The notes under the pieces: model-generated
Seen by the model: only the letters and a program-made list of their open reading frames with translations
What the model was told of the DNA's origin: nothing
Database searches by the model: none
Virus record (IMG/VR): IMGVR_UViG_2690316321_000001
DNA from: a virus
Taxonomy: Duplodnaviria > Heunggongvirae > Uroviricota > Caudoviricetes
Strand: one strand, 5' to 3'
Length of the DNA: 4,632 bases
Position numbers and translations under genes: made by a program
Part shown: positions 1,323-2,840 of the stretch, in pieces
Layout: every line of letters starts with the position of its first letter
Numbering within the stretch: position 1 is the first letter of the stretch

Positions 1323-1718
1323 TTATTGCATTCTGGCCAGGCCATGTTCTGTCATTTCGGCTGCCACACTGGCAGAGACACGGAACGCCGTTCCCGGCAG
1401 TACGAATGCCACTGGTTCATCCCGCGTGGCGTGAAGTGCAACAGTGTGCAGCGTCACCAGTGCCACGACCGTGACCAGAGCAGCCGTATCAGTCACGGTA
1501 TCCGGCTGCGCTGATACCACCTCATTTTCATGCCCGGTCAGCGCATTTTCCGGGCTGACAGACGTGTCCTGACCGGCAGCGTCATCCGTGTCATCAAGCT
1601 CCTCTTCCAGCTCTGCCACACGGAGCGCCAGTTCTTCTTTCGTCCCCGTCAGGCTGACATCACGGTTCAGTTGTTCACCCAGCGAGCGGAGACGGGCAAT
1701 CAGTTCATCTTTCGTCAT
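1323..1718 (-). CDS. FI: DNA packaging / head assembly accessory protein FI, 131 aa
   Basis: Track ORF 1323..1757 (-) is 144 aa, but the recognisable gpFI N-terminus MTKDELIARLRSLGEQLNRD begins at residue 14 (ATG at 1718..1716). That ATG is preceded by gtGGAGAAGtcc (Shine-Dalgarno), whereas the track's upstream ATG sits inside the E-FI hairpin. I trimmed the start accordingly. Confidence 0.88.
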   Translation of the reverse strand: MTKDELIARLRSLGEQLNRDVSLTGTKEELALRVAELEEELDDTDDAAGQDTSVSPENALTGHENEVVSAQPDTVTDTAALVTVVALVTLHTVALHATRDEPVAFVLPGTAFRVSASVAAEMTEHGLARMQ

Positions 1719-1739
1719 GGACTTCTCCACAGAGAGACA

Positions 1740-1757
1740 ATGGCCCCGAAGGGCCAT
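1740..1757 (-). other. Stable RNA stem-loop with a C(UUCG)G tetraloop between the E stop and the FI ribosome-binding site
   Basis: The minus strand reads UAA(E stop)-uc-AUGGCCC-UUCG-GGGCCAU-ugucucucuguGGAGaagucc-AUG(FI). That is a perfect 7-bp stem (plus 1740..1746 pairing with 1751..1757) closed by a UUCG tetraloop. Confidence 0.45.
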
Positions 1758-1759
1758 GA

Positions 1760-2785
1760 TTACGTCAGTTGTACGGACACGAACTCATCAGGGTCAGCCA
1801 GCAGCATCAGCGGTGCTGACTGAATCATGGTGAACTCACGCGCCGGATCGCCGGTGGTCACCCAGTTTTTCGGGTAACGGGCAGAGGCGTTAATGCCTTC
1901 GCGCTGTGCGTCCGCATCCTGAATGCAGCCATAGGTGCGCAGACCGCGTGCCTGAGTGTTGCCCAGCACCATCGTGTTGTCCGGCAGGAAGTTCTTTTTG
2001 ACACCATTTTCCACGTACTGTCCGGAATACACGACGATGGCCACATCGCCATACATTCCCTTATAAGACACCGCTTTGCCCAGGTCTTTTACCGCTGTCT
2101 CCAGTTCGGAATGAGAGCCGCGACGGGTATCCAGCTTCTCCCTGACGGCTTTGAAGGAACGGAACAGCGCCCAGCCTTTCGGGTCAAACACGATGATATT
2201 CACCACGCCGCTGGCGTTCAGCGCGTAGGCTTCGATATCGTCGGTCGGGTCATACGTGGACTTGTCACGCTTGCTCCACTCCGTGCCGCCGGACTGCGTG
2301 ATGTTGTTCGCCGCACTGCGGCCCATATCCACCTCAACCGGATCGAAGGCTTCACCGGTCATGGTGTATTTGCCCCTGAGCACGGCAGAAACTGCCTGCA
2401 TCTCTTCGACCTGAGCAATGGCCAGCTCTTCGTCACGCATGTTCTGCAGGATGATGCGACGGCGGCGGTAAGCCGGGTCCGCCAGATTCTGCGGATCTTC
2501 ATCCGGCAGGCGACGCAGGGTCATCTGCGGATTCACTTCATGCTTGGGTTTGACATATCCCGGCGTAAATTCAGAGGTGGAGCCGCCACGGGAACGGATA
2601 ACCTCACCGGAAACAATCGGCGAAACGTACAGCGCCATGTTTACCAGTCCCGGAATTTGTGAGAGATAGACTTTCTCCGTAGTGAAGGGATAGCTCTCAC
2701 GGAAAAAGAGACGCAGAAACAGCGGATCAAACTTAAATTTCTGCTCATTTGCCGCCAGCAGCTGGGCGGTTGTGTACATCGACAT
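1760..2785 (-). CDS. E: Major capsid protein E (gpE, HK97-fold), 341 aa
   Basis: Track ORF 1760..2812 (-) is 350 aa, but the lambda gpE N-terminus MSMYTTAQLLAANEQKFKFDPLF begins at residue 10 (ATG at 2785..2783). The track's upstream ATG lies inside the D-E terminator-like hairpin and U-tract, so I trimmed it. Length of 341 aa and C-terminus ...DPDEFVSVQLT fit gpE. Confidence 0.94.
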   Translation of the reverse strand: MSMYTTAQLLAANEQKFKFDPLFLRLFFRESYPFTTEKVYLSQIPGLVNMALYVSPIVSGEVIRSRGGSTSEFTPGYVKPKHEVNPQMTLRRLPDEDPQNLADPAYRRRRIILQNMRDEELAIAQVEEMQAVSAVLRGKYTMTGEAFDPVEVDMGRSAANNITQSGGTEWSKRDKSTYDPTDDIEAYALNASGVVNIIVFDPKGWALFRSFKAVREKLDTRRGSHSELETAVKDLGKAVSYKGMYGDVAIVVYSGQYVENGVKKNFLPDNTMVLGNTQARGLRTYGCIQDADAQREGINASARYPKNWVTTGDPAREFTMIQSAPLMLLADPDEFVSVQLT

Positions 2786-2798
2786 AAAAAAATCCCGT

Positions 2799-2819
2799 AA
2801 AAAAAGCCGCACAGGCGGC
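2799..2819 (-). terminator. Terminator-like GC hairpin plus U-tract in the D-E intergenic spacer (sense orientation)
   Basis: The minus strand reads TAA(D stop)...cacuaaaG-GCCGC-cugu-GCGGC-UUUUUUU-acgggaUUUUUUU-AUG(E). That is a 5-bp all-GC stem (plus 2806..2810 pairing with 2815..2819), a 4-nt loop, and 7 U immediately 3' (plus A-run 2799..2805). The stem can extend by A-U and G-U pairs into the flanking A and U runs. Confidence 0.4.
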
Positions 2820-2840
2820 CTTTAGTGATGAAGGGTAAGG

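Follow-up and report, generated by a model that had tools for sequence, protein, structure and literature searches.

A stable hairpin at the E-FI junction

The minus strand of the window (the whole stretch of DNA that was analysed, 4,632 nucleotides in length) encodes an RNA hairpin directly after the major capsid gene E, and this hairpin is real and the dominant fold in its context. We propose, with a probability of roughly 0.4, that in the lambda lineage it represents a conserved terminator-like stem-loop which follows the capsid gene and which would stabilise E-containing mRNA against 3' exonucleases.

The hairpin, AUGGCCC-UUCG-GGGCCAU, is located at 1740..1757 (-), with the 5' arm at 1757-1751, the loop at 1750-1747 and the 3' arm at 1746-1740, and was recognised from the sequence, as inverted repeat I16, by folding and by conservation. 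The stem, as read from the sequence, comprises seven Watson-Crick pairs, five G-C and two A-U, and the UUCG loop is closed by a C-G pair, as in extra-stable UNCG tetraloops. Across the junction the minus strand reads CUG ACG UAA UC AUGGCCC UUCG GGGCCAU UGUCUCUCUGUGGAGAAGUCC AUG ACG; the hairpin starts 2 nt past the E stop codon, and 21 nt separate its end from the FI AUG. The stem, loop and coordinates (1740-1757) of the original prediction are those found on the minus strand, and its spacing of 2 nt after the E stop and about 20 nt before FI was also correct, the exact distance to the FI AUG being 21 nt.

The isolated hairpin has a free energy of -12.3 kcal/mol (z = -3.3; 1 of 200 shuffles was equally good). 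In a 111-nt fold it is present in both the minimum free energy (MFE) and the centroid structure, in a 301-nt fold it is present in the centroid and the MFE structure retains six of the seven pairs, and in a 262-nt ensemble the stem has a pairing probability of 0.96. Folding, which had been suggested as a check, therefore favours the stem in context as well as alone. A constraint imitating a ribosome at the E stop codon lowered the stem pairing to 0.32. An Rfam covariance-model scan of the whole window, with E-values up to 1, gave no match at 1700-1800, and elsewhere in the window only three chance-level matches, all with E >= 0.2. A processing site for RNase III was rejected, since this enzyme needs about two helical turns (~20 bp) and the stem has 7 bp and is not coaxially extended in any of the context folds.

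Stability as stand-alone evidence was also rejected. The hairpin is the second most stable 24-nt window of the transcript strand, but in this G+C-rich stretch about ten others lie within 1.3 kcal/mol, and in 22 related loci 12% of the control 80-nt bins were as stable as, or more stable than, the bin after E. The placement was assessed with a class of compact hairpins, defined by at least six contiguous pairs, at least five of them G-C, and a loop of 3-6 nt. The remaining 4.5 kb of the transcript strand contain five such hairpins, which corresponds to about 0.045 expected in the 41-nt E-FI spacer. Among the related loci the background is 7.3e-4 per nt, equal to 0.044 expected per 60 nt; a compact GC hairpin was found at most 60 nt after the E stop in 13 of the 22 E-homologue loci (expected 0.044 per locus), and the remaining nine mostly have a 5-bp or imperfect version. 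Chance does not explain the location of the hairpin after E.

Position in the late operon

Gene E, encoding the major capsid protein of 341 aa (start AUG at 2785), occupies 1760..2785 (-) and was identified by Pfam Phage_cap_E (E = 8.5e-71). Its maximal open reading frame in this Pfam assignment is 1760-2812(-), and the 341-aa query gave full-length matches in relatives. The UAA stop codon at 1760..1762 (-) is supported by the ORF list, the sequence and Phage_cap_E. Gene FI, encoding a DNA-packaging chaperone, occupies 1323..1718 (-) and was identified by Pfam Packaging_FI (E = 8e-51); its start, the AUG at 1718-1716, agrees with the annotation of phage 434. Thus, both flanking genes had been named correctly from the sequence. 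The spacer between the hairpin and FI (1719..1739, -) consists, by sequence, of a pyrimidine-rich tail, UGUCUCUCU (1739-1731), followed by the FI Shine-Dalgarno sequence GGAG (1728-1725). Other genes recognised by Pfam in the flanks encode an S49 protease/scaffold (C/Nu3), D, FII and Z. Since every recognisable gene lies on the minus strand and the window matches lambda-like coliphages at about 97.5% identity, the minus strand is the late transcript. The final sense codon of E in the window (1763-1765, -) reads ACG (Thr), compared to GCG (Ala) in all other lambda-like junctions tabulated, which looks, at the sequence level, like a private C-terminal substitution.

Phage 434 (OL657226) has, from Nu1 to J, just three spacers longer than 20 nt, namely D-E (55 nt), E-FI (41 nt) and I-J (60 nt). 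Terminators are annotated in the D-E and I-J spacers and the E-FI spacer holds the hairpin studied here, while the remaining late genes abut or overlap; the spacers of lambda-type late operons seem to exist to hold hairpins. The D-E element, annotated as 'terminator, rho-independent' in phage 434 (OL657226 6100-6120), has its counterpart in the window at 2799..2823 (-), 13 nt before the E start codon. This sister hairpin is terminator-like and consists of AAAGGCCGC-CUGU-GCGGCUUUU and a run of 7 U. The late operon is transcribed in lytic growth by Q-modified polymerase, which reads through terminators, and capsid stoichiometry requires E in amounts at least equal to D. Since E lies downstream and is needed at least as much as D, the D-E terminator must be read through in lytic growth and, therefore, efficient termination in lytic growth is an unlikely purpose of either the D-E or the E-FI element. 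The idea that every abundant structural gene is followed by a hairpin was rejected, since none stands after the major tail gene V (the V-G spacer of 434 is 15 nt), in contrast to D and E.

Conservation of the hairpin and its replacement in distant lineages

A set of close relatives was compiled from prophages and viral contigs and comprised 102 lambda-like junctions (50 haplotypes). Across these 102 junctions only 1 of the 14 sites of the stem was variable, compared to 8 of 21 in the 21-nt spacer 3' of the hairpin, 19 of 50 third codon positions in the last 150 nt of E and 22 of 50 in the first 150 nt of FI. Pooling of the third positions of E and FI gave 41 variable sites out of 100, and the stem differed from these pooled neutral sites with a Fisher p of 0.017. 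At the sole variable stem site, the first position, A is changed to G, by which the A-U pair becomes G.U and pairing is retained. Judged from these alignments, the stem is under purifying selection in lambda-like junctions, and because of this selection a function of the hairpin is likely.

A wider set comprised 17 distinct enterobacterial variants (alignment A2) with E proteins 86-90% identical, from Kluyvera, Phytobacter, Klebsiella, Enterobacter, Buttiauxella, Citrobacter, Trabulsiella, Pluralibacter and N15/phi80/HK225. The core of five pairs, GGCCC/GGGCC, was invariant over the 17 variants and the loop had 4 nt. The outer pairs varied: pair 1 was G.U in six, A-U in five and G-C in four variants, and pair 2 was U-A in ten and C-G in three. 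Paired cells made up 95.8% of the 17-variant alignment versus 33-57% when the 3' partner was slid by 1-3 columns. As far as the alignment goes, the covariation of the outer pairs is real but thin, being limited to two variable pairs in related sequences. UNCG loops were present in 12 of the 17 variants; UUCG was usual, and UCCG, UGCG, UUAG, AUUC, UGUC, UGUU and UUUC were also found, indicating at the sequence level that the identity of the UUCG tetraloop is favoured but not required. The hairpin of the window shares both traits of this E-distal GGCCC-N4-GGGCC family, the site between a Phage_cap_E gene and an FI homologue and the core with pairing outer pairs.

Beyond this family, the distant E genes of 4C10, PhiR5_1 and 204576 are followed at the same site by an unrelated hairpin, CGGGGGC-GAAAU-GCCCCCG, and then by UGUCUUUUUU. 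Prophages of Pseudomonas and of marine gammaproteobacteria have other strong stems after E, with -13 to -22 kcal/mol, and in the comparison of related loci one locus (L072) had no hairpin after E. Independent replacement by unrelated hairpins at one position is the strongest argument for a functional hairpin there. Of 5,426 complete E. coli genomes, 3,205 carry the E-FI junction, a single genome having as many as five copies. The junction also occurs in records of Stx1a-converting phages, at about 97.5-97.8% identity.

The searches also returned lambda E at 95-100% identity on short low-coverage contigs assigned to Chromatium, Kitasatospora, Neobacillus, Bradyrhizobium, an Akkermansia MAG and others (L011-L026, L043-L081). 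Such matches are almost certainly due to contamination of those assemblies with lambda DNA.

Terminator character and the degenerate U-tract

Homologues of the hairpin have been annotated before. The stem-loop of N15 (NC_001901, 7053-7073) is listed as 'putative rho-indep. transcription terminator' and that of HK225 (JQ086371, 7009-7028) as 'rho-independent terminator'. Both share with the window the site between the E and FI homologues, the GGCCC/GGGCC core, the 7-bp stem and the 4-nt loop; they differ from it in a closing pair that is G-C and not A-U, in the loops AUUC and UGUC instead of UUCG and in a distance of 9 nt, not 2 nt, from the stop codon. The lambda-type E-FI hairpin is unannotated in the detailed record of phage 434. 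The homologues are already known, and what is new is the previously unannotated lambda-type copy. The structure given in the original prediction holds, but the homologous, annotated terminator-like class in N15 and HK225 and the U-tracts of relatives had been missed. By its sequence, the hairpin is an ordinary terminator-like stem-loop in a Q-antiterminated operon and belongs to a recognised capsid-distal class.

With seven pairs, five of them G-C, and -12.3 kcal/mol the window has the G+C-rich stem-loop of an intrinsic terminator, but not the U-tract: its tail, UGUCUCUC, contains 4 U in 8 nt, and a simple terminator scan of the window did not call the E-FI hairpin. The lambda/434 tail UGUUUCUC (UGUUUCUCU) contains 5 U in 8 and is borderline; it was called by the simple terminator scan. 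Relatives with the same core carry a genuine U-tract with 7 U in 8 (UUUCUUUU, UUUUUUUU, UUCUUUUU, UUUUUUCU). The decaying T-score was 1.91 for the window and 1.76 for N15, versus 3.7-4.5 in relatives with true U-tracts, and the tail of the window was among the two poorest of the variants compared. A U-tract was lacking in the window, N15/phi80, L073, L077, L078 and L068 and present in L031, L038, L074, L040, L066 and L047. The tail UGUCUCUCU of the window may be regarded as the degenerate counterpart of the relatives' U-tract, and since this tract is degenerate the hairpin would be at best a very weak intrinsic terminator. Because several independent lineages keep the hairpin without a U-tract, the hairpin and not a complete terminator is the constant feature.

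A weak, leaky intrinsic terminator could nevertheless serve either to cut transcription of FI and of the genes that follow it by a constant proportion or to stop polymerases that are not Q-modified, as in spurious or read-in transcription in the lysogen. The annotations in N15 and HK225 speak for such a function, as do the many relatives in which the same core is followed by UUUCUUUU or UUUUUUUU and the terminator call on the lambda/434 version. Moreover, exactly these two roles, partial termination or the stopping of non-antiterminated transcription, are suggested in the phage L paper for such elements in P22-like phages, where intra-operon terminators end the procapsid module and are common but 'their roles are not known' (PMC8022706). 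The P22-like elements resemble the hairpin of the window in being terminator-like and in directly following the coat-protein module inside one antiterminated late operon; unlike it, they are linked to unrelated capsid genes, have an unrelated sequence and are predicted full terminators, whereas the window has no U-tract. We consider weak termination rather unlikely as the main function: with 4 U in 8 nt the tail of the window escaped the scan, several independent lineages have no U-tract at all, Q-modified polymerase is established to read through terminators and E is highly expressed despite the far better terminator-like element in the D-E spacer.

The poor T-score, one of the two lowest, would also be compatible with a decaying relic of an ancestral terminator that has no present function in the lambda lineage, and a phage in which the hairpin is disrupted by IS4 (see below) has been deposited as a complete genome with a named host. 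This we regard as improbable, since over the 102 junctions the stem is far less polymorphic than the adjacent neutral sites, its only common variant still pairs and the junction is kept in 3,205 of the 5,426 complete E. coli genomes.

A natural disruption by IS4

In PhiR70_1 (PV340577.1; L005 901-920, L163 36-55, 1478-1500) an IS4 element, recognised by its transposase InsG, is inserted exactly inside the E-FI hairpin. The target duplication is 12 bp, GGCCCTTCGGGG. As a result, E now precedes an IS4 end that has a hairpin of its own with U7, and FI follows 1.4 kb further on. The record is that of a complete phage genome with E. coli C as named host and, therefore, an intact hairpin appears to be dispensable for viability and any effect of it is probably modest.

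The insertion at this very site would also be expected if the feature acted at the DNA level, as a conserved 'linker' at a module boundary which promotes recombination in mosaic phages or as a preferred insertion target, the RNA fold then being incidental. Between E lineages the DNA similarity indeed does not extend past E (the last matching position is query 203, corresponding to window 1758), and prophages with diverged flanking coding DNA share an identical 14-nt core. Still, an identity of 14 bp is too short for efficient homologous recombination, and a linker predicts neither compensatory changes that preserve pairing nor unrelated hairpins that take its place at the same site, so we consider it very improbable.

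Proposed protection of E mRNA against 3' exonucleases

Two functions had been offered for the hairpin, protection of the upstream mRNA and reduced downstream translation, and of these protection of E mRNA against 3' exonucleases fits the data best, because the hairpin recurs across lineages, often without a U-tract, in an operon that is read by a terminator-resistant Q-modified polymerase. The degenerate U-tract, together with read-through of terminators by the Q-modified polymerase, likewise points to the RNA hairpin itself as the selected feature. As expected for a 3' stabiliser, a stable hairpin (0.96 paired) stands just 3' (2 nt past the E stop) of a cistron that is needed in greater amount. 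In the mechanism that we propose, the long late transcript would be cut by endonucleases downstream of E, and the 3'-to-5' exonucleases PNPase and RNase II would stall at the G+C-rich, UUCG-capped stem. RNA ending just after E would then outlast the RNA of FI and beyond and could add to the high yield of capsid protein. We infer the exonuclease barrier, as the most likely role, and any effect on the E:FI ratio. A minor second role in weak termination of polymerases without Q modification is possible.

Several points weigh against such a barrier. Sampson et al. are said to have concluded in 1988 that the relative yields of lambda late genes are set by translation initiation and not by mRNA level, which leaves little room for a large effect of mRNA stability. 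The stop codon 2 nt ahead of the hairpin is used heavily, and the ribosomes that terminate there must open the stem time and again; this counts against a barrier, as does the major tail gene V, which is also very highly expressed and has no such hairpin. No usable direct data came out of a literature search that covered the lambda E-FI junction, the 3' ends and decay of late mRNA and the abundance of gpFI, and an ONT-cappable-seq paper on Pseudomonas phage contains nothing on capsid-gene terminators.

The favoured mechanism, stabilisation by a 3' hairpin, is known from bacteria. In 3' stabilisers such as the REP element in malE-malF and the hairpins of the puf operon, 3' ends and effects on half-life have been measured. 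Like them, the E-FI hairpin is stable and directly follows the upstream cistron, the one required in larger amounts, and theirs is the mechanism favoured here; it differs in that a REP pair is far larger and in that terminating ribosomes can reach it. In phage T4, C(UUCG)G hairpins between cistrons were reportedly described by Tuerk et al. in 1988 and proposed to be a terminator, processing site or stabiliser. These have in common with the window an extra-stable, C-G-closed UUCG hairpin in a short spacer of late cistrons and the same proposed roles, but they belong to a different phage without homology, and in the E-FI hairpin family UUCG is common but not conserved. T-phi, which follows capsid gene 10 of T7, is an efficient terminator for T7 RNA polymerase; like the element of the window it is a hairpin right after the capsid gene that separates off less abundantly needed downstream genes, whereas the element of the window is read by an antiterminated host polymerase and has no U-tract. 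A link to the Pas sRNAs of lambdoid prophages was rejected: although encoded in the neighbourhood of capsid and tail genes, these sRNAs have intergenic genes of their own that end in poly-U terminators, and the 41-nt spacer is too small for one.

If E RNA is indeed stabilised, the stoichiometry of lambda capsid proteins would depend on differential mRNA decay as well as on translation initiation, and a function would be at hand for the 'intra-operon terminators of unknown role' recorded after capsid genes in many phage annotations. In practice the feature is an ordinary one: it occurs in more than half of the complete E. coli genomes, its homologues are annotated and it is probably dispensable for viability.

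The hairpin and translation of FI

The proposed reduction of downstream translation, that is, of FI, was not supported, since deletion of the hairpin left the predicted accessibility of the FI ribosome-binding site unchanged. The predicted mean unpaired probability of this site was 0.34 for the wild type and 0.35 for the deletion; of two arm mutants, one had a slightly higher value (0.37) and the other a slightly lower one (0.28). Downstream of the hairpin, 11 nt separate it from the FI Shine-Dalgarno sequence GGAG. A hairpin that sequesters the ribosome-binding site, or a translational operator, was therefore rejected, since neither the Shine-Dalgarno sequence nor the start codon is included and the accessibility is 0.34 with versus 0.35 without the hairpin. 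The original prediction presumed that gpFI is present in catalytic amounts; in the current model, gpFI binds the gpE lattice of proheads (PMC4856287).

A separate, weak hairpin, GUGGA-GAAG-UCCAU (1716-1730, -), partly covers the FI Shine-Dalgarno sequence and AUG in the context folds, with an unpaired probability of ~0.25. The arms of this GUGGA/UCCAU stem are identical in lambda/434, where the loop is GGAG (sequence only), and the stem is absent from N15-type junctions.

The hairpin could also act as a translational insulator that stops ribosomes finishing E from sliding on and re-initiating at FI, or that otherwise lowers FI translation. It does separate the next start from a stop codon that is very heavily translated, and its distance to the AUG is 17-24 nt in all 19 of 19 junction types. 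Nevertheless, there is little probability in this idea: the Shine-Dalgarno sequence and AUG are outside the hairpin, the accessibilities predicted for the deletion and the arm mutants (0.35, and 0.37 and 0.28, against 0.34) give it no support, a similar hairpin precedes E, which is itself translated at very high rates, and it is instead the weak GUGGA-GAAG-UCCAU hairpin, not conserved in N15-type junctions, that partly sequesters the FI Shine-Dalgarno sequence and AUG.

Finally, the 5' arm of the E-FI hairpin starts with an AUG (1755-1757, -) from which 13 open codons lead in frame into FI. The equivalent triplet is GUG in N15, phi80 and the E. albertii type, and the FI CDS of the RefSeq phi80 record starts at this GUG (L003 811-813), whereas that of HK225, with the same intergenic sequence, starts 36 nt later. 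Ribosomes ending E might thus unwind the hairpin and reinitiate at its AUG, which would give an N-terminally extended FI in proportion to E translation, gated by the hairpin. Such termination-reinitiation is highly improbable: a start-like triplet that is in frame and open was found in only 10 of 19 junction types, was out of frame in four and absent from five, so that the evidence leans against it, and the in-frame AUG was rejected as a conserved alternative start of FI. Going by the sequences, the in-frame triplet is probably coincidental and the FI start of phi80 over-extended.
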